Shown here: one piece after another, positions 4,373 through 55,599 of the stretch
Position numbering within the stretch: the first letter of the stretch is position 1
How the letters are laid out: every line of letters starts with the position of its first letter
DNA from: Candidatus Parcubacteria bacterium
GTDB lineage: Bacteria; Patescibacteriota; Minisyncoccia; JACPXH01
Assembly: GCA_016196625.1 (NCBI GenBank)
Contig: JACPXH010000006.1
Span: forward strand, 32,660-96,659
Reading direction: 5' to 3'
DNA: 64,000 nt
Notes under the pieces: model-generated
What the model saw: only the letters and a program-made list of their open reading frames with translations
Told to the model about the DNA's origin: nothing
Databases searched by the model: none
Made by a program: the position numbers and the translations under genes

Positions 4373-4409
4373 CCCCTCGACCATGCGGTCGAGGGGCCCC
4401 TATTTTTTT
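4373..4409 (+). terminator. rho-independent terminator (CCCCTCGACC-loop-GGTCGAGGGG + T7)
   Basis: Perfect 10 bp GC-rich stem followed by TATTTTTTT. Confidence 0.7.
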
Positions 4410-4448
4410 GTTGACTCGCCTCTTCTTTTTGGCTACGCTGGGTGAGCT

Positions 4449-4766
4449 ATGTTGGCCATTATTCAAACCGGCGGTAAGCAATATCTGGTTGAGCCGGGCC
4501 AGAAATTGAAAATCGAAAAGCTCCCCGCCGAAGCGGACAAGGAGGTTGTGTTTGATGAAGTGCTGCTCGTGGCTGACGAAAAGAAGGTGTCGGTGGGGAC
4601 CCCGCACGTCAAAGGCGCCGAGGTTACAGCCAAGGTTGTGCAGCAGGGCCGCGCGAAGAAAGTGATTGTGTTCCATTACCGCGCCAAAACCCGCTACCAC
4701 AAAAAAGCCGGCCATCGGCAGCCGTTCACCGAGGTGGAGATTACGAAAATCAATTCCGGTACATAG
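4449..4766 (+). CDS. rplU: 50S ribosomal protein bL21
   Basis: MLAIIQTGGKQYLVEPGQKLKIEKL... is the canonical bL21 N-terminus. Length 105 aa. Confidence 0.9.
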   Translation: MLAIIQTGGKQYLVEPGQKLKIEKLPAEADKEVVFDEVLLVADEKKVSVGTPHVKGAEVTAKVVQQGRAKKVIVFHYRAKTRYHKKAGHRQPFTEVEITKINSGT

Positions 4767-4775
4767 ACGTACGCC

Positions 4776-4813
4776 CACCATTCTAATGTATTAATACATT
4801 AGAATGGTGGGCG
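4776..4813. repeat. AT-rich perfect palindrome, copy 1 (CCCACCATTCTAATGTATTAATACATTAGAATGGTGGG)
   Basis: The same 24-26 bp core TTCTAATGTATTAATACATTAGAA recurs at 15841-15874 and 40199-40232. All copies are intergenic. Confidence 0.8.
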
Positions 4814-4884: not shown

Positions 4885-5373
4885 ATGAGGCAGGAGAATT
4901 TCTTCGAGTGGGTTGGGTTCCGGGACCTCGCCGATCATTGCCTAGACGCGCTCGCGGAGTATGCGCGATCGGGCGAGCTCGCGCCGGAGTGGCGAGCTCC
5001 AATTGAGGAGGCGAGGGAGTTCTGCATTGCTGTGCTTCAGGGCAGGCGCATGCTGGAGACGATGCAGTTTCTGGGGTGGCGGCGAGGGGTTCTCGAGGCC
5101 TGGGAGTGGGCGCACGACGTGATCAAGGTGCTCCGAAAAGAGGAGCATGTCGTGGAGTTCATGGAGGCCGAAGTCAGCCGCTACCTGGCGCTGCTCGATC
5201 TGTTGCTTATCCTGGAGAAGCCCGTGTTCTCGCGTGAGGACAGCGAGGCGCTGACTGTTTTCTTCAAGGCTCTCCGGCAGGTGGCGATGGCAAGGCAGGA
5301 GCGAGAGCGGCAGGAGCGGAACGCCGAACGCGATCCGTTCGGGTCTTGCTATCGTGCCTGCGCGGTGGCGTAA
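4885..5373 (+). CDS. hypothetical protein
   Basis: ATG at 4885 preceded by GAGGAGGTG. The ORF-track start at 4804 overlaps the palindrome and is probably too far upstream. A hairpin terminator follows at 5391-5420. Confidence 0.45.
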   Translation: MRQENFFEWVGFRDLADHCLDALAEYARSGELAPEWRAPIEEAREFCIAVLQGRRMLETMQFLGWRRGVLEAWEWAHDVIKVLRKEEHVVEFMEAEVSRYLALLDLLLILEKPVFSREDSEALTVFFKALRQVAMARQERERQERNAERDPFGSCYRACAVA

Positions 5374-6158: not shown

Positions 6159-6498
6159 GTCATTGCGAGCGAAGCGAAGCAATCTCGAGGAGATCTTGGT
6201 ATGACGGATTTCTACTTTCGATCAGTGCAATCTTTTTCTGACGTGATCCAGCTTTTATTTTCTTTTCGGCAGATATAGCATCTTCCGCAGTAGGAAATGT
6301 TTCGGAATAGACAAGTTTTCCGATCCGATATTTTATCGTGAACCCGTCAGGGGAGCCATTTCGATGTTCGTGCATCCGTCTCATGATGTCATTCGTCACG
6401 CCAGTATAGAAAACAGTGTTCCGTTTATTCGTAGCGATGTATACGAAATACTCTTTCGGCATGAGATTGCTTCGTCGCTTCGGCTCCTCGCAATGACG
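6159..6498. mobile_element. MITE-like element: ~33 bp inverted repeats (GTCATTGCGAGCGAAGCGAAGCAATCTC / GAGATTGCTTCGTCGCTTCGGCTCCTCGCAATGAC) flanking a GIY-YIG gene
   Basis: The inverted repeats abut both ends of the gene exactly: the stop codon lies inside the left repeat (6160-6162) and the start codon ATG (6460-6462) immediately abuts the right repeat. The same repeat pair recurs without cargo at 12760-12848, 14494-14564, 19278-19355, and in degenerate form at 15924-15978. Confidence 0.65.
6160..6462 (-). CDS. small GIY-YIG nuclease family protein
   Basis: MPKEYFVYIATNKRNTVFYTGVTNDIMRRMHEHRNG is a GIY-YIG domain (100 aa). The C-terminal LEIASLRSQ is encoded by the flanking hairpin repeat. 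Confidence 0.75.
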   Translation of the reverse strand: MPKEYFVYIATNKRNTVFYTGVTNDIMRRMHEHRNGSPDGFTIKYRIGKLVYSETFPTAEDAISAEKKIKAGSRQKKIALIESRNPSYQDLLEIASLRSQ

Positions 6499-11299: not shown

Positions 11300-11674
11300 C
11301 TAGCTTTTTGTGGCGCGAGGGTTGAGGGTTTTGATCATAGCGTGAAGCATCTTCATCACTTCAGTAAGAAGTGCCGTTGTCCTTGCGTAATCCAGACGTT
11401 TTGTTTTCGGGAGGCGCTGCGCGATTTCGAGTTGCGTTTCCAGCTCGGCGCCAGAGCTGTACGCGATTCGGAGAAACTGGAGGAAGTCTTGTTTCGTGCC
11501 GCGATGGCGACCCTCTGCAATGTTTGAAGCAATCGTTACCGCTGACCGACGCATCTGGGCGATGAGTCCGTAGATCTCTTCTCGCGGGAATTGTTCAGTC
11601 AGTTCATAAATAGCAACCACCAGTTGGATGGCGCGCTGCCACACAATGAGGTTTCGGTATGAGTGTATCGTCAA
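11300..11674 (-). CDS. four-helix-bundle protein (23S rRNA intervening-sequence protein family)
   Basis: [50 protein letters not shown] matches the TIGR02436-type signature. Confidence 0.8.
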
Positions 11675-12759: not shown

Positions 12760-12848
12760 GTCATTGCGAGCCCCGAAGGGGCGTGGCAATCTCATGAATA
12801 AGCCACTGATGAGAGATTGCTTCGTCGCTTCGCTCCTCGCAATGACGG
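12760..12848. repeat. cargo-less copy of the GIY-YIG-associated hairpin inverted-repeat pair
   Basis: GTCATTGCGAG...CAATCTC + 20 bp spacer + AGATTGCTTCGTCGCTTCGCTCCTCGCAATGAC. Confidence 0.7.
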
Positions 12849-13039: not shown

Positions 13040-13460
13040 ACGGTTTATACTTGGTAGTATATTGGTAGTATAATGGATACATAATTCGTAGCTCCTTTTG
13101 TCGTCTAGAGCCGTCCAGAGCGTCGCCTTCGTGCGACGAGGCCGTTCCCAGTACCGCCGCGCAATCTGCCTCCGCATGGTAGTAGCGGGAATGCGTTTGC
13201 GGGCGGTGTGGTCCTGGTGGCCTCGGTTTCGGCGCTTTGGTCGGTCTTGCCGTCTATGGTGGGGGCGCGATCTGCTCGTTTGCGATTGCGCAAGCCATGA
13301 CGGCGTTGCCTCGGCACAGCAAGCGACAGATCTGGGGAGGTGGACGTTTAAGCCACAGCCTGATCGCGGTGCCGCCGGGGTGGGGCCGGTAGGGTAATCG
13401 GTAAGCCAAGAGTGAGTCGTCACTCTGGCAAGCCGAACCTCTACCGGCCCCTTCTTTTTT
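13040..13460 (+). ncRNA. candidate non-coding RNA (~380 nt) of unknown class
   Basis: TTGACA-17-TATATT/TATAAT promoter-like elements at 13033-13074. Several internal helices, a stable terminal hairpin and a CTTCTTTTTT tail (13448-13460). No credible ORF on either strand. No RNase P, tmRNA or SRP signature recognised. Confidence 0.25.
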
Positions 13461-13465
13461 GGCAC

Positions 13466-13495
13466 TTGACATCTAGTTACTTATCGTAGTATAAT
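13466..13495 (+). promoter_or_regulatory. sigma70-type promoter TTGACA-18-TATAAT
   Basis: Near-consensus hexamers at 13466-13471 and 13490-13495. Confidence 0.6.
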
Positions 13496-13501
13496 GCTAT
13501 T

Positions 13502-13735
13502 TGTTGATTTGAGATCCAGCTTGAATTGTTGTTAGTTCTTGAAAACACCGCATTCCTCCACAAATCCGTGGGTTTCCGTGATTACCCTCCTACTCGCGGT
13601 CCGTCCTGAGAGCAATCAAGGGACGGGGGGTCCTTCTGGACTTTTAAACCCTCGGATTTGTGGAGGAATCGAATAGCGCGAAATGGGGGCGGAGCGGCTG
13701 CTAGGCAGCCGCTCCGCCCCAGAGTTCCGTTGACT
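13502..13735 (+). ncRNA. candidate structured RNA / cis-regulatory leader upstream of ORF 13756
   Basis: A 23 bp long-range helix (13549-13573 with 13647-13671) encloses a ~73 nt multi-hairpin insert. A perfect 16 bp hairpin follows at 13686-13720, then SD GAGGGAGGA and the ATG at 13756. Confidence 0.3.
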
Positions 13736-13755
13736 TAAACCCTTAGCGAGGGAGG

Positions 13756-14199
13756 ATGGTCATGAACGGTAATGGACAGGCGGCATGGGCCGAGGCGGGG
13801 ACCCGGGTAACGGCGTTCCTCGCCGGCCGCGTGGATTATCCGCAGGCGACCGGGCTGGCCGCGGACGTCGCGGCGCTCCGGGCGTACGGCCTGGATCGCC
13901 AGCGGGACTGGCGGTCGCGGGTTTTGAGCGCCGAGCAGGCGCTCTCAGCGATGCGGCGGGTTGAGGCCGAGGCCGCAGCCGCGGCCGAGCGGGTCAGGCA
14001 GGCCGCCGTGTTCAAGACGGCGTACCGGCCCGCGCCGGCGATCGAGCGCCTCACCGGCCGCGGTATCAACGCCGGAATCCGGTGCGGCCGGTCGAACACG
14101 GCCGAGCGGGCGCGGCGCGAGGTGAACCGGGCCGCGCGGGCAGCGGACAACAGCGCCGCGGCCGAGGGGTTCGGCTGCGGAACCAAGAAAGGAGGATAG
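13756..14199 (+). CDS. hypothetical protein (very high GC, Ala/Arg-rich)
   Basis: Strong SD. 147 aa ORF with GC well above the window's average. Confidence 0.4.
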   Translation: MVMNGNGQAAWAEAGTRVTAFLAGRVDYPQATGLAADVAALRAYGLDRQRDWRSRVLSAEQALSAMRRVEAEAAAAAERVRQAAVFKTAYRPAPAIERLTGRGINAGIRCGRSNTAERARREVNRAARAADNSAAAEGFGCGTKKGG

Positions 14200-14493
14200 C
14201 CATTAGTACCTAGTGCGATAAGAAGATAAGGGCGGCCAACACCAGAGCTTATGCATTGCGGGGTGGCAGAGAGCCCGAAATCTCTGCGAACCGGGGAATG
14301 CTTCGCGGTGCGGCCCGCGATTGCGGTCGCAACGATGTTCTTCTGCTACTGCGGGGCAGGCGCGAGTGCTTACACGAGCGCCTGCCCCGTTCCTCCGAGA
14401 TTTGTATGGAATGAATGGTTCGGCAAGATCGCCGCAAAGGACTCATCCATAAAAGCTTCAGAGGAATTGCCGTGCGCGTGGCGTACCCATCGT

Positions 14494-14564
14494 CGTCATT
14501 CTGAGCGAAACGAAGAATCTAGTCCGAACGAGATTCTTCAGTCGCTTCGCTCCCTCAGAATGAC
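14494..14564. repeat. variant cargo-less hairpin-repeat pair (GTCATTCTGAGCGAAACGAAGAATCT / AGATTCTTCAGTCGCTTCGCTCCCTCAGAATGAC)
   Basis: Same architecture as 12760-12848, with CATTCTGAG in place of CATTGCGAG. 10 bp spacer. Confidence 0.7.
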
Positions 14565-14899
14565 ATAAGGTGAGATTAACAACCTGCGAGAGCGTATACC
14601 GTCGGATTGTGGGAAAAGAAACTCCAGGCATTGATTATTGTTCAGTTTGTCTTTTCGATTCGACATTGTACTAAATCGCAAAGTTCCTCGAACTTTGCGA
14701 TCGTACGAATATCGCCGCGCGATGTTCCAGTATGCGTTCTCGCAGGCGGTTAAAGCCCTCCGGCCCCCCGGCAAACTGTGAGCTCAAAAACATTTGCCGG
14801 GCCCCGATGTGCTGAGCATTCAACGTTCTTCCGCCATCCGGCGGAATGGACAAACCCTGCTTCGCGTGAAGCGACGCAGGGTCAGGATAAGGAGGGGCC

Positions 14900-15226
14900 A
14901 TGTTCTCGAAAAACACAACAAGTACCCAAGCCATCGCGGATACGCTTGGGCTGGTGGAGCGTGAAGTGCTCGCGCTCTGTCGGGACAAATGCGACCCGCG
15001 CCGGCAAGCCGCGCTCAACCTTCTGTTGATGGTTGGCGACTTGATGAAAGATGCCGACTATCAGAAGGCCGAGTTTGCGGATCGTTTCCGCGGCGTAGCC
15101 AGCACTCTGGGCTACGAGGTGCGATCGAGCTGCGGCGTAACGGGCAGCGGATCGTCCCTCGGCGTACTCAAGGGGATGCTGGGCGCGATGATCGCGGTCG
15201 GGGAGGTGATCCATGATGCGCTTTAG
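14900..15226 (+). CDS. hypothetical protein
   Basis: ATG preceded by hairpin CCCTGCTTCGCGTGAAGCGACGCAGGG plus AAGGAGGGG. A near-identical leader precedes ORF 16209. Confidence 0.45.
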   Translation: MFSKNTTSTQAIADTLGLVEREVLALCRDKCDPRRQAALNLLLMVGDLMKDADYQKAEFADRFRGVASTLGYEVRSSCGVTGSGSSLGVLKGMLGAMIAVGEVIHDAL

Positions 15227-15422
15227 TTGGGGGATCATCTGCCAGGTCGCGATTGGGTTTGCGGGTATCGTGCTTACCGTATTGATCCTCGGCGCTGTCT
15301 GGCGGCATGGGACTTCCCTGCTGCAAGAGGTGTTGGGAGAATGGTTGCATCAACGGCCCGCATTCGGGCCGATTCAGCTGCTGCCGCGTTTGACGTGGTT
15401 GCGACTGGGGAGGGTGCGATGA
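15213..15422 (+). CDS. small hydrophobic protein
   Basis: SD GGGGAGGTGA. One TM helix. Overlaps the preceding ORF's stop. Confidence 0.35.
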   Translation: MMRFSWGIICQVAIGFAGIVLTVLILGAVWRHGTSLLQEVLGEWLHQRPAFGPIQLLPRLTWLRLGRVR

Positions 15423-15528
15423 GTTCTTAGGAATTTGTGCTGCTCACCGTGGTGGCTGCCGTTGCGGCTTGGTTCATCGTTAGGACTCTCGACCGGAGTT
15501 GATGCCGGTTGAGAGAAAGGAGGACGGC

Positions 15529-15693
15529 ATGATCGCCTTGGCCGTGCTCGTTCTCGCGCAGGCGTGCGCCGTTGGCTTCGCCTGCCTGCTTTTCACGGGC
15601 GGCGAGCCGTGGCAAGAACACGCGCTCGAGCCGATGCCCTCTCGGGTACGGCTCGTCCGCTGGCCGCTGCCAGCGAAACCAAGTCTCAACTGA
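15529..15693 (+). CDS. small hydrophobic protein
   Basis: AAAGGAGGACGGC-ATG. 55 aa with a single TM segment. Confidence 0.3.
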   Translation: MIALAVLVLAQACAVGFACLLFTGGEPWQEHALEPMPSRVRLVRWPLPAKPSLN

Positions 15694-15840
15694 TTTTTTG
15701 ATCTTTCTTTAGCCGCTTCGCGGTTGGCACCGCGGGGCGTTCATGAGTGACCTTCGGTTCCTCGTTCTCGCAGGCGTTTTCGGGGGAAGTCGCCTGTGAG
15801 TTTCAATCATTAAAACTTCTCCCTCCATCCGAGCTCGTCT

Positions 15841-15874
15841 CATTTTCTAATGTATTAATACATTAGAAAATGAT
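15841..15874. repeat. AT-rich palindrome, copy 2 (TTTCTAATGTATTAATACATTAGAAA)
   Basis: See 4776-4813. Confidence 0.8.
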
Positions 15875-16208
15875 GTGAGGCGGGTTGTGATGGAGTCATG
15901 ATGCTCGATCCGAGTTCAGAACGGGATTGCTTCGCCCCGTAGAATCCCGCTAGGATTTGTACGTGGCTCGCAATGACGACCGTTCAGGCTTCTGATGGAG
16001 CTCCGGGCTACATCGCAACATTCGCAAGAATTTTGTGATCGCCCGACCATCGCAGGGCGATGGTTTAGGACTCCGTGTTCTATTCATCTTATGCGAAAAC
16101 CCCGCCTTGCGCGGGGTTTTCGCTTGGTGGTAGGTTGGGCAAACACAAACCGCCGTTTTCGGGCAAGCCCTGCTTCGTGCAAAGCGATGCAGGGCAAGGA
16201 GGGGATAA

Positions 16209-16483
16209 TGGCCAAACGGTGTTGGATTCGAGTCGGCAGTAAGGCGTTTCAAGTTGAGCTGGGAGACAAGACGTGGCATCCGGCCGGAAGCTCGCCGTGC
16301 GCAAAGTGCGGTAGAAACGACGACCGGACCGCCAGCCTTCTCGTCACCGGCGTGATAGACCCAAAAGGGTTTTACGTGCCGATGACGTCTCAACTTTGGG
16401 ACATTGCCGCCAATGCTTTCCGACGCAGCGGCAATGTGCTGGCTGGGACGCTGTGCGCGAGTTGTTTGAGTCCGCTGGTTTGA
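16209..16483 (+). CDS. hypothetical Cys-rich (zinc-ribbon-like) protein
   Basis: Start MAKRCWIRVG after the hairpin+AAGGAGGGG leader. CxxC (CAKCG) and CASC pairs. Confidence 0.45.
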
Positions 16484-16499
16484 GGAAGGAGGAGGTGAG

Positions 16500-16826
16500 G
16501 TGATGAACGAACGATGGATTGAGGTGGATGGGCGGCGGTTTCGGGTGGTGCTGAGGGCGCCTCTGCGGTATCGGGGTGAACTCGTTCCGTGCCGCGGCTG
16601 CAGACAGCTCGGTAAGGCGATGACCGTCCGGCACGTCGAGCGGGTGTTTGGCGCCGACGGTGGAGAGCTCCTACGGGACTCGCCCGATGGGAGCCTCGCG
16701 GCCAACACCTTCAGCCGCGAGCACCTGTTGGCCGGACCGTTGTGCAGGGGATGCAGGTTTATCCGGACGATATGGAGTTTTCTTCGCCTTCCGTTGCGCC
16801 CCGTGCCCGTTGGCCCGAGCCGATAG
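16500..16826 (+). CDS. hypothetical Cys-rich protein
   Basis: SD GAAGGAGGAGGTGAGGTG. CRGCRQ...CRGCRF motifs. Confidence 0.4.
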   Translation: MMNERWIEVDGRRFRVVLRAPLRYRGELVPCRGCRQLGKAMTVRHVERVFGADGGELLRDSPDGSLAANTFSREHLLAGPLCRGCRFIRTIWSFLRLPLRPVPVGPSR

Positions 16827-16942: not shown

Positions 16943-16977
16943 TTGACACGACATTGCCCCTTGTTTAAGATGGGGGC

Positions 16978-17748
16978 ATGGACGGGCGAACCCAAGGCAT
17001 TCTTTCAACCGTCGTGCGCGAATACATCCGCCGGGCCGAGCCCATTGGTTCGGAGTGGCTGGCCGAGAGTTTTAATTTTGGCATCGCGGCGGCCACCATG
17101 CGTCAAGAGTTGGCGCGTCTGGACGAGTCCGGCTACCTCATGCAGCCGCACACCTCGGCTGGCCGGGTCCCAACCGACAAGGGCTATCGGTTCTTTGTCA
17201 ACCTTCTGTTGGTCGAAGAGCGCCGCGGCCACGAGCGTTTGCTCCAAGCGATGCTCCGACAAGCAGAAGCGTTCGAGCGAGAGCGCCAAGACATCATGCG
17301 GGCTGCCGCCCAGTGGCTCGGCGAGCACTCGCGGAATCTTGGCATGGTGGGCTTATCTGGTGGCGAGGATGGGGTCCTTCGACGCGGCTCAGGACAAATG
17401 CTCTATGCATTTGGTTTCAAGCAACTACTCCGGCAGCCTGAATTAGGCGATGTGCAATACCTTGCCCAAGCGTTCTCGCTTTTTGAGAGCATAGAAGAGC
17501 GGATTGCCGATCTGGTAGACCGTGTGCCGACTGACGCAACCAGTGTTTTCATTGGTCGCGAGAACCCGCTGCGTGAAGCTCGGCAGTGGAGCATGGTGGT
17601 GGGGCAGTTTGAGCGGGCGGGCGGGCCGGGGATGGTGGCGATCGCGGGACCTACTCGGATGGACTACGACCGGAACATTGCGCTCGTGGAAGCGATGCGG
17701 CAGTTTTTGACGGCGAATCAGGAATTAAGAATTAGGAACGATGAATGA
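16978..17748 (+). CDS. hrcA: heat-inducible transcription repressor HrcA
   Basis: Winged-helix N-terminus plus HrcA C-terminal domain. First gene of the hrcA-grpE-dnaK-dnaJ arrangement. CIRCE lies upstream. Confidence 0.9.
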   Translation: MDGRTQGILSTVVREYIRRAEPIGSEWLAESFNFGIAAATMRQELARLDESGYLMQPHTSAGRVPTDKGYRFFVNLLLVEERRGHERLLQAMLRQAEAFERERQDIMRAAAQWLGEHSRNLGMVGLSGGEDGVLRRGSGQMLYAFGFKQLLRQPELGDVQYLAQAFSLFESIEERIADLVDRVPTDATSVFIGRENPLREARQWSMVVGQFERAGGPGMVAIAGPTRMDYDRNIALVEAMRQFLTANQELRIRNDE

Positions 17749-19277: not shown

Positions 19278-19355
19278 GTCATTGCGAGGAGCGAAGTGAC
19301 GAAGCAACCTTGTATGTAGGCCACAAAGAGATTGCTTCGTTTCGCTCGCAATGAC
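19278..19355. repeat. cargo-less hairpin-repeat pair (GTCATTGCGAGGAGCGAAGTGACGAAGCAACC / GAGATTGCTTCGTTTCGCTCGCAATGAC)
   Basis: Same family as 6159-6498. 19 bp spacer. Sits ~90 nt upstream of dnaK. Confidence 0.7.
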
Positions 19356-29691: not shown

Positions 29692-30066
29692 TCACAAGGT
29701 AAGAATGTTGAGTTCGGCTATCTTTTTGAAATCCCGAACGTTGCGCGTGACCAGAGATGAGTTTGTCAGGAGAGCAGTTGCGGCGATGATGCTATCTCCG
29801 AGCTGAAGCCCGTAGCGTCGGCGAACGAGCGCGGCAATATCGGCCATCTGGGCATCAACCGGAACAAGTACGAATTGTTCAAGCAGACGATAGATTTTTT
29901 TCTCTTCATTCTCGCGGAGAATCGGCGCGGCGAAAAGTTCAAGACGAGTAATTGCGGAAACGAAAAGCCGCTCGCCATCGAGTAGCCATTGCTCGAGCGT
30001 TTTGCTGACTTGTTGGTCACGCTCGAGGTGATAGATGAGGATGTTCGTGTCAATTGTCAAGGGCAC
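29692..30066 (-). CDS. vapC: PIN-domain toxin VapC (GTG start)
   Basis: PLTIDTNILIYHL ... LVTRNVRDF is the PIN domain with its conserved acidic residues. Confidence 0.85.
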   Translation of the reverse strand: MPLTIDTNILIYHLERDQQVSKTLEQWLLDGERLFVSAITRLELFAAPILRENEEKKIYRLLEQFVLVPVDAQMADIAALVRRRYGLQLGDSIIAATALLTNSSLVTRNVRDFKKIAELNILTL

Positions 30067-33263: not shown

Positions 33264-33476
33264 TTATCGGAATTTCTCCTTGGGCAGTTTGGACTGCTTC
33301 ACGATGGCGAGAAAGGTGCCAATGTGGATTGGTCGGGACCTTCCATGAAGGGGAACCGGCACCATGGTGCCGGTTCGAGAATTCTTGAAAATCACGTGGC
33401 TTCCTTTCTGTCGTGCCAAGACGAATCCGTTCTCTTTGAGGATTTGGATGACGCGTTTTGCGGGCAGTGAGCGCAT
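33264..33476 (-). CDS. hicA: HicA-family mRNA interferase toxin
   Basis: VIQILKENGFVLARQKGSHVIFKNSRTGTMVPVPLHG matches the HicA/YcfA signature (GSH...P.H). Confidence 0.8.
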   Translation of the reverse strand: MRSLPAKRVIQILKENGFVLARQKGSHVIFKNSRTGTMVPVPLHGRSRPIHIGTFLAIVKQSKLPKEKFR

Positions 33477-36435: not shown

Positions 36436-37431
36436 ATGTGGTCTCGTCTAGCCCTCGCGGGCGCCATCTTCCTCGTTTTTGCGGCTAGTCTGTTTGTGGA
36501 CGTGAGAGCGCCCAGACGCCGCGCTTCTCCGGGCGGGCAATTGGCGTCGGTCGGGCAATTGCCGGTAGCTGAAGGTGGAGGGGACATCTTTTTGGAAGCT
36601 GCCACCGCTCTTGATCTTGCGCCGCGGCGGAACTGGCAGACGGCAAACTTTGAAACTTTAAGCCGTGCAGCGGTCGCCGTGCTGCTGGCACGGGGCGAGC
36701 GCAAGAACGATCGGATTCTGCTCCAGAAAAACTTGCTCGAGCGGGTGCCCATTGCCAGTATCACCAAGCTCATGACGGCGATAGTGGCGCTGGATTACGA
36801 TGAGGCTCTACCGTTTGCCGAGCCGGCAGTGATCTCGCGGCAAGCCGCGACCACTGAAGGGCAAAGCGCCGGGCTTATGATGGGCGAGCGTCTGGCGGCT
36901 CAAGACTTGTTGGGGTTGATGCTGGTCGCCTCGGCCAACGATGCGGCCGTGGCGTTGGCGGAGCATGTCGGGCAGGTGGTTGCGCGACCCGGAGAAGATT
37001 CGGTGGCAGCATTCGTGCGGTTGATGAATGATCATAGCCGCATGCTCGGTCTTACCGACACCAGCTTTGCCAACCCGGCGGGGCTGGACGATCCCAATAA
37101 CTATTCGACCGCGGCCGATCTGGTGGAGTTGGTGAAGATATCGCGGCAGTATCCGGCTATTTGGGCGGAGTTGGCGAAATCCTCTCTTGACATAGCGTCG
37201 CTCGAGGGACGCAAGCACCACGTGCAGAGCACAGACGATCTGCTGGGTGTGTTGCCAGGGTTCGAGGGCGGCAAGACTGGCTTTACCTCGGAGGCCGGGG
37301 GAAGCATGGTGGCGGTAACGCGGATTGGTCCCCACGGAGAGGAAGTGGTTACGGTGGTGCTGGGCAGTGCTGACCGCTTTGGTGAGACGAGGCGGCTCAT
37401 CGAGTGGCTGGGACAGGCGTACCTGTGGTGA
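36436..37431 (+). CDS. D-alanyl-D-alanine carboxypeptidase (PBP5/6-type serine peptidase)
   Basis: SITKLMT (SxxK), SANDAA (SxN) and KTGFT (KTG) motifs. N-terminal signal/anchor. Confidence 0.85.
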   Translation: MWSRLALAGAIFLVFAASLFVDVRAPRRRASPGGQLASVGQLPVAEGGGDIFLEAATALDLAPRRNWQTANFETLSRAAVAVLLARGERKNDRILLQKNLLERVPIASITKLMTAIVALDYDEALPFAEPAVISRQAATTEGQSAGLMMGERLAAQDLLGLMLVASANDAAVALAEHVGQVVARPGEDSVAAFVRLMNDHSRMLGLTDTSFANPAGLDDPNNYSTAADLVELVKISRQYPAIWAELAKSSLDIASLEGRKHHVQSTDDLLGVLPGFEGGKTGFTSEAGGSMVAVTRIGPHGEEVVTVVLGSADRFGETRRLIEWLGQAYLW

Positions 37432-37507
37432 GTTTAGTCCCGGTGTTCCCGGGGCCTTTTGTTGGCAGCGATTGTCATTTCTCGGCTTTGGCGCTATAAT
37501 TCCAGTC

Positions 37508-38551
37508 ATGATGGCAGCCAGCGAAGTTGTCCGCATTCTCGCACTCACGACGATCTCGTTCGTCGTGGCCATGCTGGGGACCCCGATCCTCACGCACTTC
37601 CTCTACCGCTACCGTTTGGGCAAGCAAATCCGACAGGATCCCGCCACGCCGATTTATTCAAGCCTGCACAAGGCCAAAGAGGGTACACCCACCATGGGCG
37701 GCATTTTAGTTTGGGGGGTCGCATTTCTTTTGGTTGTGGTTTTCGGTCTTGCGGATCTCGCGTGGCCCGGGAGCGTTTTCGCGAAACTCAATTTCTTGTC
37801 TCGTTCGCAGACATTGCTGCCATTGGGTGCGTTGGTGTTGAGTGCCTTAATCGGCTTGGGTGACGATCTCTTAGGTATTTTCCGAATCGGCCCCAAAGGA
37901 GGAGGGCTCAACATGAAGCACCGGCTCGTGTTATACACCATCGTTGCCGCAATCGTGGCCTGGTGGTTTTACGCCAAGCTTGGCCGGCATGTGCTGCATG
38001 TGCCTTTTGCGGGCAATTTTGACTTGGACGGTTGGTTTATCGCTTTTGCCGCTTTTATTATCGTCGCCACGGCATTTTCAACCAACGAGGCTGACGGGCT
38101 TGACGGTCTTGCCGGAGGGGTCATGCTCATTGCCTACGCGGCGCTGGGCGCAATTGCCTTTCGCGCCGGGCTCTACGATCTGGCTGCGTTTTCCGGAGTG
38201 CTCATCGGTGGCCTACTCGCGTTCCTGTGGTTCAATATCCATCCGGCCCGGTTTTTCCTGGGCGATACGGGTGCCATGTCTCTTGGGGTTACGCTGGGCG
38301 TTATGGCCCTGTTGACGAATACGGCGCTCCTCTTGCCGCTTATCTTTTTCATTCCGTTTTTGGAGTCGGCTTCGGTGATTGCACAGGTGATTTCCAAAAA
38401 GTTTTTCGGCCGGAAGATTTTCCTCTCCACACCCATCCACCACCACTTTGAAGCCTTAGGTTGGCCGGAGTCCAAGGTAACCATGCGGTTTTGGATTGTG
38501 GCAGGCGTGATGGCAGTGGGTGGGGTGATTGCGGTGTTGGTGGGGCGGTGA
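37508..38551 (+). CDS. mraY: phospho-N-acetylmuramoyl-pentapeptide transferase MraY
   Basis: Ten TM helices. Conserved NEADGLDGLAGG and histidine-rich motifs. ATGATG start at 37508. Confidence 0.9.
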   Translation: MMAASEVVRILALTTISFVVAMLGTPILTHFLYRYRLGKQIRQDPATPIYSSLHKAKEGTPTMGGILVWGVAFLLVVVFGLADLAWPGSVFAKLNFLSRSQTLLPLGALVLSALIGLGDDLLGIFRIGPKGGGLNMKHRLVLYTIVAAIVAWWFYAKLGRHVLHVPFAGNFDLDGWFIAFAAFIIVATAFSTNEADGLDGLAGGVMLIAYAALGAIAFRAGLYDLAAFSGVLIGGLLAFLWFNIHPARFFLGDTGAMSLGVTLGVMALLTNTALLLPLIFFIPFLESASVIAQVISKKFFGRKIFLSTPIHHHFEALGWPESKVTMRFWIVAGVMAVGGVIAVLVGR

Positions 38552-38717: not shown

Positions 38718-39935
38718 TTACGCGCGCGATTCTAACAGGAAAGAATTGTGGAGTTTGAGGTTCGCCGCACCCCCGTTCACAAACAACTCCACCGAGACGT
38801 CGTAGTGCGTCTCGCGCCACTTTTCGATGTGGTGGCGGGCCCGGCCGAAAATGTCTCGGCCAAGTTCTTCGGCGCAGTCTGCGGGCAGCTCAACCGTGAG
38901 CTCAACCCAGCGGCTCGACCCGAACTCAACCGTCGCAATCTGCTTTGCCTTGCTCACCCTGAATTCGAGTCGAATTTCTCCCAGCACGTAATCCGATTCG
39001 CCGATGCGCTCCACGTTGGAAGCGAGGTTGCCGTCTTCGGGCTGCATTGCTTTGAGCAACGAGGTGAGCCAGACATCGAGCAGAGCGATGCTGTCCGCCT
39101 GCTCTTTGATCCACTGAAGCGTCTCCGGCCGGCACGACCGTTTGTTCGTTTGCTCGAGCCGGTCAAGCGCGGCGAGCGCCTCGGCGTTTCGGATGTCGCG
39201 CTTGGCAAGCTCCGGGCCGCCGCGGCGCGCCCGAGCCATGACGAGCACCCGCTGGATCTCGTCAGGCATAAGGGGCTGCTCGAGCCAGAGTTCGATGGTG
39301 GTATCGGTGGTGATAGGAGGAACGCCGACGTGATCTCGGATGAGACGGAGGATGCGATCCTGTTCGGTCTCAGAGACGAACCGCCCATGCGCTTTCCACT
39401 CGGCGAAGGACTCTCCTTTGCGCAGGTCGTTGCCAGCCGGTCCGGGCCGGTAGGCAGCGATCATGAACCGGAACGCCACGACGCTCTCCTCAGTCGGCCT
39501 CGATGTCCAGTCCTGAATTATGCTGCCGAGCATGGCCAGTTTCGTCTCAAGGAGCGTGCCGTGTCGTGTCGTTCCGGATCCTTTAGTGTCCGGCCAGTGG
39601 CCGTCCTTCACAAGCCGTGCGTCCGGCAGCTGCCAATAGAGTTCCCGCAGGTGTTGGCGGAACTGTTTGTCCGCCTTCGCGAACGCGGCCCGAGCTTGGC
39701 CTCGCGGCTCGTCATGGCACAGGCCAAGCTCGGTTAGTTCGTAGGAGCGGCCGAGCAGCATAACCAGCTCTTCGGCGACTCCGTCGTTATGCGCTTTGGC
39801 TGCGGCCAATAGTGCTCTGGTGAGCACCCGACTGTGCTGTGCTGGCGTTATTTCTTCGCTCGCGTTGAGTAGGTGGGCGGCCAGGAACTGATGGAGATTC
39901 GCTTTCTCTGGATCTACTTCGATCAGATTCTTCAT
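38718..39935 (-). CDS. hypothetical protein (405 aa), high GC
   Basis: Start MKNLIEVDPEK after GGAGGGAAAC. No family recognised. The long + strand ORF opposite is R-rich antisense. Confidence 0.5.
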   Translation of the reverse strand: MKNLIEVDPEKANLHQFLAAHLLNASEEITPAQHSRVLTRALLAAAKAHNDGVAEELVMLLGRSYELTELGLCHDEPRGQARAAFAKADKQFRQHLRELYWQLPDARLVKDGHWPDTKGSGTTRHGTLLETKLAMLGSIIQDWTSRPTEESVVAFRFMIAAYRPGPAGNDLRKGESFAEWKAHGRFVSETEQDRILRLIRDHVGVPPITTDTTIELWLEQPLMPDEIQRVLVMARARRGGPELAKRDIRNAEALAALDRLEQTNKRSCRPETLQWIKEQADSIALLDVWLTSLLKAMQPEDGNLASNVERIGESDYVLGEIRLEFRVSKAKQIATVEFGSSRWVELTVELPADCAEELGRDIFGRARHHIEKWRETHYDVSVELFVNGGAANLKLHNSFLLESRA

Positions 39936-40198
39936 GTTTCCTCCCTGCGGCCGTAGCCGCTCCGCCTCTTGGCGGCTGCCTTCCTGCCCGTAGGCCGGAA
40001 GCCGCGACTGAAAGCCCGTAGGCTCCAGATCGCGGATGTGGTAGTGAAAAGAACCCATCCGCCCTCATGCGGATTGACTCTACGGTATCGTCGTATCTTT
40101 GGGGGTGTCAAGCTAGTGTAGAGTACACATCAATGGGTGACGATTCGCCATGCGAGGGGTGACTAACGCGCAATGCCGCGACCTCAAAAGCTGCGAGT

Positions 40199-40232
40199 CC
40201 ATTCTAATGTATTAATACATTAGAATGATGGT
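40199..40232. repeat. AT-rich palindrome, copy 3 (CCATTCTAATGTATTAATACATTAGAATGATGG)
   Basis: Lies in the divergent intergenic region between 39935 and 40445. Confidence 0.8.
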
Positions 40233-40444
40233 GTTTGCTTGCGAAAAGCTGATTGCGTTGTTCATGTGGTCTAGGGCGGGCGTCGAGTCCGCTGCCGCGC
40301 CAACAATTCTAATAGAATTTGAGTGGGGGGCAGTTACAAGAAGCTTGTAGAAAGCTTGCAGAACGCAGCGCGCTCGGGTTACTGTGGATGCGTCCGCAAA
40401 CCGCTGCCCGGAACAGGGCGGCCAGAAAAGGGAGGAGGGAGGCG

Positions 40445-41227
40445 ATGTTCAATTCGGCATGGGAGGTTGATCGGGGTCGGGTCTTTGAAAACATCGGAAC
40501 GTGGGGGGAGTTTTTGCTCGATTGGGGTCGGAACCGAACCCAGCTGGGAGCGGTCGGGCTTCTCTACGGCGGAACCGAAGTGCCTATCTCGGCCACCACC
40601 CTCGAAGAACGGGCAAGGGAAATTGCCCGGCGTCTGGACTTTTATCTGAAGTGGGCCCTCCAAGAGGAGTGGGCGGCGGAACCGAACACTGCCGTTGCCG
40701 TAACTAGCCAGCAGCTCATCGTCAAGCACTGGCTCAAGGTGTTGATGCGCGCCGCGGATGATTGTTTCTGTGGCAGCCACCAACTCCTGCTCGCCTTTCT
40801 CCACACGCGGTGGCCGTCGCTCCTGGCGCCGCCGTATCCCCGCTTCGTCGCCGAGTACCTCTCTGAGATTTGCCATGTGTGGCAGTTCGGCGATCCTGCG
40901 CGTAGGGATATCAGGTTGCCCATTCAGAACCTTACGGACTTCGTTGTCCCAGCCCTGTGCGTCTGGGGACTCGGCTACAGGTTGGCGGAAGATCATGCCC
41001 GGCCAGATGCCGCCGACATGATCTCGGTTTGGCTTAGGTACAGATCGTACGACCTCTCTTCCGCGATGCAGCACATCTCTGGTTGCGGTCGGCCGTGGGT
41101 TGACCTCCGCCTTGATGTTGACGAAGTCGATGAAGAGGCGAATATCCGGGCAACGCTCGCACTGTTCAAGCTTCGGCATCAAGCCGGCAAGGATGTCCTG
41201 ACCGGATCTCCGAAAGCTCCGTTCTAG
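40445..41227 (+). CDS. hypothetical protein (260 aa), high GC
   Basis: SD AAAGGGAGGAGGGAGG before the ATG. No family recognised. Terminator at 41231-41270. Confidence 0.5.
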   Translation: MFNSAWEVDRGRVFENIGTWGEFLLDWGRNRTQLGAVGLLYGGTEVPISATTLEERAREIARRLDFYLKWALQEEWAAEPNTAVAVTSQQLIVKHWLKVLMRAADDCFCGSHQLLLAFLHTRWPSLLAPPYPRFVAEYLSEICHVWQFGDPARRDIRLPIQNLTDFVVPALCVWGLGYRLAEDHARPDAADMISVWLRYRSYDLSSAMQHISGCGRPWVDLRLDVDEVDEEANIRATLALFKLRHQAGKDVLTGSPKAPF

Positions 41228-45363: not shown

Positions 45364-46495
45364 TCTTAAACCCGATGTAACGGCGCGCATCGTGCTTTCC
45401 GGCGGTGGCACCGGCGGACATTTATTTCCCTTAGTTGCGGTCGCGCGCCAGCTTGCGATGAAAGCGGCGGCTCAAGGCCGACCGCTTGAACTTCACTATG
45501 TGGGGCCAAAACCACAGGCTGCCTCCACGTTGACGAACGAAGGAGTTGTCACTCACTTTATTTTTGCCGGCAAACTGCCACGCTACTACGCGTGGCGGCT
45601 GCCGTGGGAGCTCGTCAAACTGCCGATAAGTTTCGTACAGACGTTAGTGGTGCTTTTGAAGCTCATGCCTGATGCGGTGTTCGCCAAGGGTGGGTACGGC
45701 AGCGTGCCGGTCGCGCTGGTGGCGTGGCTGTACCGAATTCCGGTGTTTGTGCACGAATCTGACACGATCCCCGGTTTGGCCAACAGGATCATAGCTCATG
45801 TGGCGAGGCGCATTGCCGTGGCCTTTCCTGATGCGGCGCGCTTCTTTCGCGAATCGAAGGTGACTGTGACTGGCAATCCGCTCCGTCGTCCTCTCCTTGA
45901 AGGTTCAGCCGCGCGCGCGCGAGAGATATTTGCGATTAGAACGGACAAACCCATATTGCTTATTTTGGGCGGGTCGCAAGGTGCGGAGGCCATCAATGAT
46001 TTGGTCGTCGCATCGCTTCGGGATTTGCTCATCCGCTACGAGGTTATCCACCAGGTTGGCGAGGCTACCTTTGAGCGGGTGAGCGAGGAGGCGAAGGTTG
46101 AAATTGGCACAGGTTTGGAGACTGGTTACCACGCGCGGCCATTTCTGAGCGAAGCAGAGCTCGCCGACGCCTATGCGGCGGCCAGCCTCATCATTTCCCG
46201 GGCGGGCTCCGGTTTGTTCGAGATTGCCGCTTTGGGCAAGCCGGCGATTTTAATTCCGTTGCCGTCAGCCGCTCAGGACCACCAGCGCGAGAACGCTTAT
46301 GCGTATGCGCACACCGGCGCGGCGCTCATTTTGGAACAGGGGAACCTGACGCCGCATCTTTTTGCCGAGCGCATTTCTTCACTGCTTGAGCATCCCGAGA
46401 CCACGGCGCAGATGGACGAGCGCGCGAAGGCTTTTGCGAAGATTGACGCGGATGAAAAGGTGGCGGAGGAGGTGTGGAGGTTGGCGGTCGGTTAA
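45350..46495 (+). CDS. murG: undecaprenyldiphospho-muramoylpentapeptide beta-N-acetylglucosaminyltransferase MurG
   Basis: IVLSGGGTGGHLFPLVAVARQL G-loop and GT28 C-terminal domain. Start at MPTFSLKP (45350). Overlaps the ftsW stop. Confidence 0.9.
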   Translation: MPTFSLKPDVTARIVLSGGGTGGHLFPLVAVARQLAMKAAAQGRPLELHYVGPKPQAASTLTNEGVVTHFIFAGKLPRYYAWRLPWELVKLPISFVQTLVVLLKLMPDAVFAKGGYGSVPVALVAWLYRIPVFVHESDTIPGLANRIIAHVARRIAVAFPDAARFFRESKVTVTGNPLRRPLLEGSAARAREIFAIRTDKPILLILGGSQGAEAINDLVVASLRDLLIRYEVIHQVGEATFERVSEEAKVEIGTGLETGYHARPFLSEAELADAYAAASLIISRAGSGLFEIAALGKPAILIPLPSAAQDHQRENAYAYAHTGAALILEQGNLTPHLFAERISSLLEHPETTAQMDERAKAFAKIDADEKVAEEVWRLAVG

Positions 46496-46546
46496 CTGCG
46501 TCAAACATGTTTCGGTGATCGCAGTGAAATGTTACGCGGGCGATGG

Positions 46547-46583: not shown

Positions 46584-46735
46584 GTAAAAGAGAAGCGGCC
46601 CGACGGCGAGTGCCGTCGGCCGCTGGTTAGAAGAGCCAGATGACGATGAGGAGCGTAAGGAGGAGGCACGCCCATGCGGCCACACAAGCGACCCTGGCTG
46701 CCTCACGCCTTCTCTCTATTTCCTCCTCAATGCTC

Positions 46736-55320: not shown

Positions 55321-55599
55321 ATGGCCAAACAAAAAGCAACTGGTTCTACACGGCTCGGCCGCGACTCTCAGTCCAAGCGCCTCGGGGTCAAGCTCTACGA
55401 CGGGCAGCTTGTCCGACCTGGCAACGTGCTCGTGCGCCAGCGCGGCACCAAGATTTTCCCCGGCATCAACGTCCGGCGCGGGAGCGACGACACGCTCTAC
55501 GCCGCCACAGCCGGCAAGGTGAAATTTGTCGGCAAAACTAAGGTCCGCTTTGACGGTCGCCGCCGGAAGGTGAAAGTGGTAAACGTGCTGCCGGGTTAA
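55321..55599 (+). CDS. rpmA: 50S ribosomal protein bL27
   Basis: [24 protein letters not shown]... is the canonical bL27 sequence. Confidence 0.9.

Follow-up and report, generated by a model that had tools for sequence, protein, structure and literature searches.

A perfect palindrome repeated in a Parcubacteria genome segment is a probable operator of the YerC/YecD (TrpR/HisR) repressor family

What is the role of an AT-rich perfect palindrome that occurs three times in the intergenic DNA of a bacterium from the candidate phyla radiation (CPR)? The question is raised by a 64,000-nt stretch of genomic DNA (the window), part of a genome assembled from a metagenome, whose proteins are recorded at NCBI under 'Candidatus Parcubacteria bacterium' with locus tags HYZ80_ on a contig of 97,392 bp. 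The 24-mer TTCTAATGTATTAATACATTAGAA has exactly three occurrences here (4781-4804, 15845-15868 and 40202-40225) and none in 100 dinucleotide-preserving shuffles of the window, which confirms the threefold repeat claimed in a sequence-only reading of this DNA. Based on sequence comparison, the palindrome is probably an operator for a repressor of the YerC/YecD type (TrpR/HisR family), with two overlapping 20-bp registers offset by 8 bp. Around a common 20-bp core, CTAATGTATTAATACATTAG, each copy extends as a perfect palindrome to a different length:

4772-4813, copy 1: 42-bp perfect palindrome CGCCCACCATT-CTAATGTATTAATACATTAG-AATGGTGGGCG, 6 nt after the rplU stop codon
15840-15873, copy 2: 34-bp perfect palindrome TCATTTT-CTAATGTATTAATACATTAG-AAAATGA, after a block of small open reading frames (ORFs), about 1.1 kb upstream of hrcA
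40200-40227, copy 3: 28-bp perfect palindrome CATT-CTAATGTATTAATACATTAG-AATG, in a divergent region of the dcw cluster

The coordinates given earlier were nearly right, except that copy 1 spans 42 bp and not 38. The 26-bp form bounded by A...T holds for copies 1 and 3 only, since copy 2 has T...A, and the genome that had been called GC-rich is only moderately so (56.7% GC in the window). The contexts first described (after rplU, in the small-gene block and, within the dcw cluster, between two divergent orphan genes) all hold. The 28 bp centred on each copy read xxTT-CTAA-TGTA-TTAA-TACA-TTAG-AAxx. Tolerating up to 3 mismatches brings out no further copy of the 24-mer in the window, and a fuzzy search with as many as 8 substitutions likewise yields no degenerate relatives. 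A 15-bp mini-palindrome, AATTCTAATAGAATT, lies at 40306-40320, in the divergent intergenic region of copy 3 and about 80 nt to the right of the latter; TTCTAAT occurs in the window only at the three copies and at this site. It looks as if the main palindrome had lost its central 13 nt and kept its arms (ATTCTAAT / TAGAAT), and by this resemblance may be the relic of a second copy.

The exact 20-bp core is found at five places in GTDB species-representative genomes and at three in Joint Genome Institute (JGI) metagenome contigs. A viral origin was set aside, there being no exact match in viral contigs (IMG/VR). Two of the three JGI matches place the exact core just upstream of a PF01371 YerC/YecD gene:

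L006, 74% GC, a proteobacterium: palindrome 31 nt upstream of a 105-aa YerC/YecD gene, which is followed by hisG
L007, 36% GC, Komeilibacteria-like contig: palindrome about 43 nt upstream of a YerC/YecD gene

The two proteins are 41% identical. The L006 protein has its relatives among proteobacterial YerC/YecD proteins, the L007 protein among those of Komeilibacteria and other Patescibacteria. Both groups have kept the recognition helix (S-TTV-RVA), and this accounts for the shared operator. In the third JGI contig (L008, 5600-5720) the core lies inside a nest of short repeats, CCTAATGTATTA / GGAGGGGCTAATATTGCACCTCC, with no link to a TrpR-like gene, and this match is probably unrelated or due to chance.

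A profile search finds the YerC/YecD family to be widespread in CPR bacteria, including Komeilibacteria, Buchananbacteria and Kerfeldbacteria. The DNA surrounding ten CPR YerC/YecD genes, chosen by protein and not by DNA motif, was then compared, and every context for which DNA was obtained has a closely related palindrome on the promoter of the regulator. The core is identical or near-identical to palindromes that overlap YerC/YecD promoters in at least 10 other lineages. The regulator-linked sites are:

L009-L011: TGTTACAATGTATTAAAACATTGGCAAT
L012/L013: TGTTATAATGTTTTAATACATTAATACA
L014: TGTATTAATGTGTTAATACGATAATACT, with the -10 hexamer of the regulator, TAATGT, inside the operator
L015/L016: TGTATTAGTGTGTTAATACACTAATACA and three more sites before a radical-SAM gene and small proteins (four sites)
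L019, 56% GC, like the window: TGTACTAATGTATTAATACATTAATGCA, preceded by TTGACG-17-TAGTGT, a 19/20 match to the core
L020: TGTATTAGCGTGTTAATACGCTAATACA
L021: two sites
L022: TGTACCAGTGTATTAACACATTGATACA

At the regulator-linked loci TTGACx is followed, after a 17-nt spacer, by a TAnnnT hexamer that overlaps or abuts the palindrome; this promoter overlap is met in L009, L012, L014, L015, L019, L021 and L022. Read from the sequence, such a geometry is that of an autoregulated repressor acting by classical repression. The CPR sites have the 28-bp consensus TGTA-yyAr-TGTr-TTAA-yACA-yTrr-TACA. The outer TGTA/TACA quartets are present in nearly all of the regulator-linked sites, at both ends in most and at one end in L009, L014 and L019.

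A symmetric, lineage-weighted position weight matrix (PWM) was built from nine regulator-linked sites (one each from L009, L012, L014, L019 and L020, and four from L015), none of which had been found through the window sequence. The three palindromes are its top three positions in the 64 kb, with 35.4 bits for copy 2 and 22.7 bits each for copies 1 and 3. Among positions that overlap no copy the best has 9.1 bits; frames shifted over the copies attain 10.1 at most, and the maximum in 20 shuffled windows is 13.1 bits. Copy 2 falls within the 30-44 bits of the training sites, and the matrix recovers the L021 sites, on which it was not trained, at 36-37 bits. The scores indicate that the window palindromes belong to the family of regulator-linked sites, well beyond chance. 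The dimeric transcription-factor operator suggested by the sequence-only reading is supported in this respect, and a candidate regulator family can now be named, YerC/YecD (TrpR/HisR).

Four of the five GTDB matches are on contigs of one metagenome-assembled genome (MAG), CAYPCM01, labelled Saccharibacteria. It is a relative of the window organism (the sister MAG), with 68-85% identity in nucleotide sequence to the window over syntenic stretches. The whole CAYPCM01 assembly has four exact copies of the core, not the dozens that had been named beforehand as the mark of a generic repeat. The four copies are:

L003: orthologue of copy 2; 32 bp are 100% identical, the surrounding 154 nt 79% identical
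L005: between murG and an adenylosuccinate lyase (purB) gene
L001: between sufD and a cysteine desulfurase (sufS) gene, inside the suf operon
L004: 11 nt after the stop codon of a gatA-like gene and 8 nt before a small membrane-protein gene

The identity of 32 bp between copy 2 and L003, within flanks that are 79% identical, argues that the sequence itself is under selection. All seven copies in the two genomes have a 22-bp core in common that does not vary, and the alignments show purifying selection on it. The fifth GTDB match (L002) lies inside an insertion sequence (IS) element of an unrelated MAG. Here the exact core, with other flanks, lies at 1900-1935 and has a DDE transposase (DUF4277 + DDE_Tnp_1) on one side and a divergent small CxxC gene on the other. 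It could be a chance match, an IS-internal regulatory palindrome, or a vehicle for the spread of such sites.

A number of observations weigh against the repressor assignment. The outer quartets are absent in 7/7 copies of the window lineage, which have CATT, TTTT or CACT instead, so that each register consists of one perfect and one partial half-site, and each matches about 16/20 positions. This absence also explains why copies 1 and 3 score below the training range. A consensus scan finds no sigma-70-like promoter at any window copy, and copy 3 is 89 nt from the closest -35 element that can be recognised. For four of the seven lineage copies a stop codon ends 0-25 nt before the palindrome and the flanking genes are co-directional; one of these, L001, is inside the suf operon. 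The neighbours of the window copies include no his/trp biosynthesis or transport genes (they have no Pfam matches), and the adenylosuccinate lyase, cysteine desulfurase and small membrane-protein genes next to the sister-MAG copies are not his/trp genes either. No PF01371 gene is present in the window or in the sister-MAG loci examined, by tblastn and by a six-frame hidden Markov model search, and Pfam scans of 40 window ORFs reveal no helix-turn-helix regulator apart from HrcA. A 46-bp stretch is common to copy 1 and L005 (95.7% identity), at loci that are not orthologous. Finally, outside the core the copies differ symmetrically, so that each arm pair remains palindromic, which transcription-factor binding does not predict. 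On the whole, the operator proposed in the sequence-only reading is partly supported.

The regulator of the host was also sought by ranking YerC/YecD family matches by GC-type amino-acid composition. The contexts of P0228, P0172, P0149, P0214, P0223, P0206 and P0226 all belong to other assemblies, and it is not among them. A weak TrpR-like match on the minus strand of L003 (E about 0.06-0.2) is in a non-coding frame. A 108-aa ORF in the window (14900-15226) has an HTH-looking N-terminus, but is unrelated to the TrpR-like family (hhalign probability 0.4%).

The palindromic arms give the copies strong RNA hairpins, with -19 to -36 kcal/mol and z-scores down to -7.9 (copy 1, -35.2 kcal/mol, z = -7.5; copy 2, -26.5 kcal/mol; copy 3, -19.1 kcal/mol). 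The outer stem of copy 2 has G-U pairs, on the plus strand only, and is kept in L003 via changes on both sides. The stem extensions had been described as flank-specific, and the arms do differ between copies, but not independently: those of copy 1, L005 and L001 are mutually related (CGCCCACCATT, CGCCCCCATT, CACCACT). An Rfam scan of the whole window at gathering thresholds yields tRNA-Lys only, and an E-value scan of 13400-16300 gives chance matches only, including a plant miRNA hairpin model over copy 2. Together, the symmetric arms, the stability of the hairpins and the placement after stop codons suggest that hairpin formation is either selected or generated. If selected, it may be a structure for RNA 3' ends or processing, or a pause in aid of a roadblock. 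If generated, it may come from template-switch symmetrisation beside a perfect palindrome. The 'perfection' of quasipalindromes by template switching (the Ripley model) is a mutational mechanism and not a function. It could account for the copy-specific symmetric flanks of a perfect 24-bp palindrome, but leaves the mutual likeness of the copy 1, L005 and L001 arms without explanation.

The hairpins also raise the possibility of a repeat like the repetitive extragenic palindromes (REP) or miniature inverted-repeat transposable elements (MITE), acting as a 3'-end stabiliser, RNase III site or cruciform, with a core that merely resembles or derives from a TrpR-type operator and binds no repressor. 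Perfect palindromes of 28-42 bp far exceed the need of a transcription factor, and their symmetric change, their stability and the plus-strand stem kept in L003 likewise favour such a repeat. The position of copies just after stops between co-directional genes, the 46 bp common to copy 1 and L005, the lack of the L005 copy together with purB at window 46474-46536, and the presence of another small repeat family nearby would also fit such an element. It does not, however, account for a 22-bp core that is invariant and does not covary, even in the orthologous pair with flanks about 20% diverged, or for a PWM match to independent repressor sites far beyond chance. Four exact copies in the sister MAG and three in 64 kb, with no degenerate ones, are few for a repeat of this kind; there are no target-site duplications, and no Y1/RAYT (REP-associated tyrosine) transposase is found among the window ORFs scanned. 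Copy 3, moreover, is located in a divergent promoter region and at the 3' end of no gene. A REP-like element is the main rival explanation, though an unlikely one.

The other small repeat family, GATTGCTTCGTCGCTTCGCTCCTCGCAATGAC, has copies that differ by 0-2 mismatches or one indel, at 6465-6498, 12815-12846 and 19278-19309 (minus strand) of the window and at L001 2039-2071 of the sister MAG. A GIY-YIG (UPF0213-like) gene, at 6160-6462, has its start directly next to one of the copies. A longer variant at about 15925-15978 keeps both ends and has an internal insertion; it is part of about 170 nt on the 3' side of copy 2 that are present in the window and absent in L003.

A strong hairpin directly after rplU, gatA, murG and sufD might also be expected of a rho-independent (intrinsic) terminator. 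No T-tract follows any of the copies, as the sequence-only reading had stated, and a terminator scan lists copy 3 only, weakly, with the tail ATGGTGTTTG. Genuine terminators elsewhere in the host genome do carry T-runs, which agrees with the earlier judgement that the palindrome is probably not an intrinsic terminator. A terminator would need neither the invariant AT-rich core nor the match to the repressor PWM, and copy 3 lies between divergent genes. This explanation is extremely unlikely.

The promoters of the host are of the canonical sigma-70 TTGACA/TATAAT type, often with very short leaders, and a perfect example (TTGACA-18-TATAAT) is present at window 13466. Three others are of use here:

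about 4409-4437, plus strand: rplU promoter, TTGACT-17-TACGCT
within 16943-16980: hrcA promoter, TTGACA-17-TAAGAT
40111-40082, minus strand: promoter of the orphan gene to the left of copy 3, TTGACA-18-TACCGT, read from the sequence

The transcripts of both hrcA (start region 16943-16980) and rplU (start region 4409-4451) appear to be leaderless or nearly so, the -10 hexamer ending 6 nt and 9 nt before the ATG, respectively, without a Shine-Dalgarno sequence. With such short leaders being common in this genome, the palindrome itself could be imagined as a compact bidirectional promoter. TAGAAT, a 5/6 match to TATAAT, faces outward on both strands in copies 1, 3 and L005, and TAATGT/TACATT lies inside. 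The regulator of L014 uses TAATGT within its operator as a -10, and in L004 an ATG follows TAGAAA after 9 nt. Against this, the window copies have neither a -35-like hexamer 16-18 bp away nor a TG extension, whereas genuine promoters here have a strong TTGACA. The gene to the left of copy 3 is served by a promoter of its own some 90 nt off, and the start codon downstream of copy 1 is at a distance of 80 nt. A promoter function of this kind is thus very improbable.

The genes around the three copies are mostly orphans:

4449-4766, plus strand: rplU, 50S ribosomal protein L21 (MBI3304977.1), upstream of copy 1
4885-5373, plus strand: orphan gene 3' of copy 1 (MBI3304978.1, hypothetical, singleton cluster, no Pfam match), with a native-like GC content at third codon positions (GC3) of 0.785
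15995-16483 and 16500-16826, plus strand: two small paralogous CxxC...CxxC ORFs without Pfam match, between copy 2 and hrcA
38718-40058, minus strand: 446-aa orphan gene left of copy 3 (MBI3305020.1, hypothetical, no Pfam match)
40448-41227, plus strand: orphan gene right of copy 3, no Pfam match; the ORF opens at 40319, and the ATG at 40448, preceded by GGGAGG, is the likely start

The start recorded at NCBI for MBI3304978.1 is 4804, an ATG inside the right palindrome arm of copy 1. Judged by its GAGGAGG Shine-Dalgarno sequence, the ATG at 4885 is a more plausible start. On the 3' side of copy 2, the two CxxC...CxxC ORFs are followed by hrcA-grpE-hsp20. Their sister-MAG homologue has the same motif, ANTFxREH..AGPLCxxC, and these ORFs (15995-16826) are candidate regulated genes. 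Copy 3 starts 89 nt upstream of the -35 element of the 38718-40058 gene. The orphan pair around it sits between mraY (37325-38551) and murG (about 45366-46474), and the 3' end of the right-hand gene is conserved in the sister MAG (L005 2-167, 94% identity). No homology was found between the window neighbours and the regulator-linked target genes of other CPR bacteria.

Since copies adjoin lineage-specific orphans within conserved clusters (after rplU; mraY-murG), the palindrome might instead mark recombination or insertion sites at the boundaries of accessory cassettes, like an attC site or the end of a mobile element. The core inside an IS element beside a DDE transposase (L002) would agree with this, as would the insertion at L005 6225-7890 of the sister MAG, where a purB gene and a copy stand between murG and the next gene; the window has neither of them at the corresponding position (46474-46536). 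What flanks the purB insertion, however, is not a pair of palindromes but a duplicated terminator hairpin, GGCGGCCGACGGCGAGTGCCGTCGGCCGC, which the window has once, at 46596-46624. No integrase or recombinase is near any copy, and there is a single palindrome per locus. The orphan genes have a GC3 of 0.69-0.79, compared to 0.66-0.75 for housekeeping genes, and a foreign origin is therefore unsupported. The idea of an insertion between rplU and rpmA fails on distance, rpmA being located at 55321-55587, 50 kb away. An orthologous site in the sister MAG retains one of the copies, and the identity with repressor operators would be left unexplained. We give a cassette marker very little credence.

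Other features of the window bear less directly on the palindrome. The Pfam scans of the 40 ORFs identify only GrpE, Hsp20, PIN, HicA, L9 and a 23S-rRNA-intervening-sequence (IVS) protein. A PIN-domain toxin, a HicA toxin and the IVS (bAvd-like) protein are encoded between copies 2 and 3, together with many short ORFs without Pfam match. The toxin and IVS genes have these coordinates:

29692-30066, minus strand: toxin/IVS region gene
33264-33476, minus strand: toxin/IVS region gene
11300-11674, minus strand: toxin/IVS region gene

If the palindrome is indeed an operator, its regulator would be a YerC/YecD helix-turn-helix repressor encoded elsewhere in the host genome. The two overlapping TGTAyTAr-N4-yTArTACA sites would seat two dimers side by side, probably with the involvement of a small-molecule co-repressor. 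In other CPR bacteria, where by sequence the palindrome covers the -10 element and transcription start of the regulator's own and neighbouring genes, binding would lead to repression. In the window lineage, where the outer quartets are absent and the sites are found right behind stop codons or at a distance from promoters, the bound protein would be more likely to form a roadblock or insulator, separating a housekeeping gene from the following and in many cases lineage-specific gene, than to cover a promoter. The GC-rich symmetric arms could add a stable RNA or DNA hairpin that aids the roadblock.

Genes near the CPR regulator-linked sites include glyA-folD and those for a purine/uridine phosphorylase, a phosphoribosyltransferase-like protein, a LOG-family protein and radical-SAM enzymes, and in the sister MAG a site lies ahead of purB. 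A role of the regulon in nucleotide salvage or one-carbon metabolism is conceivable, if speculative. CPR bacteria generally lack histidine biosynthesis. In L015 500-3830 (= L016) and L009 10001-13285 the YerC/YecD gene is clustered with a conserved radical-SAM-like enzyme that has the motifs GVKRGGLSSG...AGCVACGMCD. The L015 cluster also encodes several small proteins (65-100 aa), of which some are CxxC zinc ribbons and several have ...GH as their last residues, and four operators precede its genes. Such a cluster may be a regulated operon for the synthesis of a peptide natural product (a ribosomally synthesized and post-translationally modified peptide, RiPP) or of a cofactor.

A bolder proposal, which we regard as doubtful, is that a TrpR/HisR operator has been remodelled as a self-complementary 'operator-in-a-hairpin' immediately behind housekeeping genes. 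A ligand-sensing YerC/YecD protein and a GC-clamped hairpin would together form a conditional roadblock or insulator that uncouples orphans, purB and sufS from essential operons. In this proposal YerC/YecD would be one of the few global regulators of CPR bacteria, with a regulon of nucleotide-salvage and one-carbon genes (glyA-folD, purine nucleoside phosphorylase, phosphoribosyltransferase, purB) and radical-SAM/small-protein genes, and not of histidine biosynthesis.

CPR bacteria (Patescibacteria) have very few transcription factors, and their gene regulation is almost uncharted; no paper linking the YerC/YecD family with CPR bacteria was found in the literature. A conserved 28-bp CPR operator and its link to YerC/YecD make regulons computable in uncultivated bacteria, and provide material for experiments in the form of a probe for electrophoretic mobility shift assays (EMSA) and candidate target genes. 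If true, the hairpin/roadblock variant would be an unusual way to insulate accessory genes in compact operons. If not, the palindrome would be an ordinary repressor-binding site of a known family in a new phylum.

Among known systems, the boxes of Fur/Zur/PerR, PadR (ATGT-N8-ACAT), LexA, NrdR, IscR, CIRCE (hrcA being nearby) and parS, compared by eye, do not fit in spacing or sequence. The REP and bacterial interspersed mosaic elements (BIME) are similar in forming hairpins, in lying after stop codons between co-directional genes, and in varying in presence among related genomes. They are, however, imperfect, number from tens to hundreds and go together with RAYT (Y1) transposases, whereas there are 3-4 perfect copies here, with an invariant core that equals a repressor operator.

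The operators of E. coli TrpR (trpEDCBA, aroH, trpR) have the same TGTA...TTAA...TACA frame. TrpR dimers of E. coli are reported (Lawson and Carey 1993) to bind in tandem with an 8-bp offset, and this offset is the period of the CPR 28-mer, TGTA-N4-TGTA-N4-TACA-N4-TACA. The inner boxes differ, being CTAG in E. coli and CTAA/TGTA here, and the regulators are only distantly related.

The closest relative is HisR (YerC), a repressor of the TrpR family with 20-bp palindromic operators (Ashniev et al. 2022, PMC9413887). The proteobacterial HisR consensus, TGTAnTArnnnnyT..TACA, is close to the E. coli TrpR box TGTAcTnGTnnACnAgTACA, and the E. coli TrpR consensus is quoted there as TGTACTAGTTAACTAGTACA (PMC9413887). 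About half of hisR genes are autoregulated, and in Ruminococcus gnavus HisR requires L-histidine for binding (PMC9413887). HisR operators and the window sites are both AT-rich palindromes with TGTAyTAr half-sites and a TTAA-like centre. The published sites tgtactaatatgttaataca (Francisella) and tgtattaacgcattagtaca (Dyella) (PMC9413887) are a few positions off the registers of L006 and the window, and L006 has the exact window core ahead of a hisR-hisG pair. The CPR regulator-linked sites, like those of HisR, cover the promoter in an autoregulatory arrangement. The published motif, however, is a single 20-bp site, whereas the window has two overlapping registers in 28 bp. HisR controls histidine biosynthesis or transport, while the neighbours here are orphans, or purB and sufS in the sister MAG. 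Unlike HisR operators, the window sites lack the outer quartets, do not overlap promoters and have extra GC-rich palindromic arms. What is new in the window is best filed as a known kind of operator, that of TrpR/HisR, in a new phylum, with an atypical placement and with hairpin arms.

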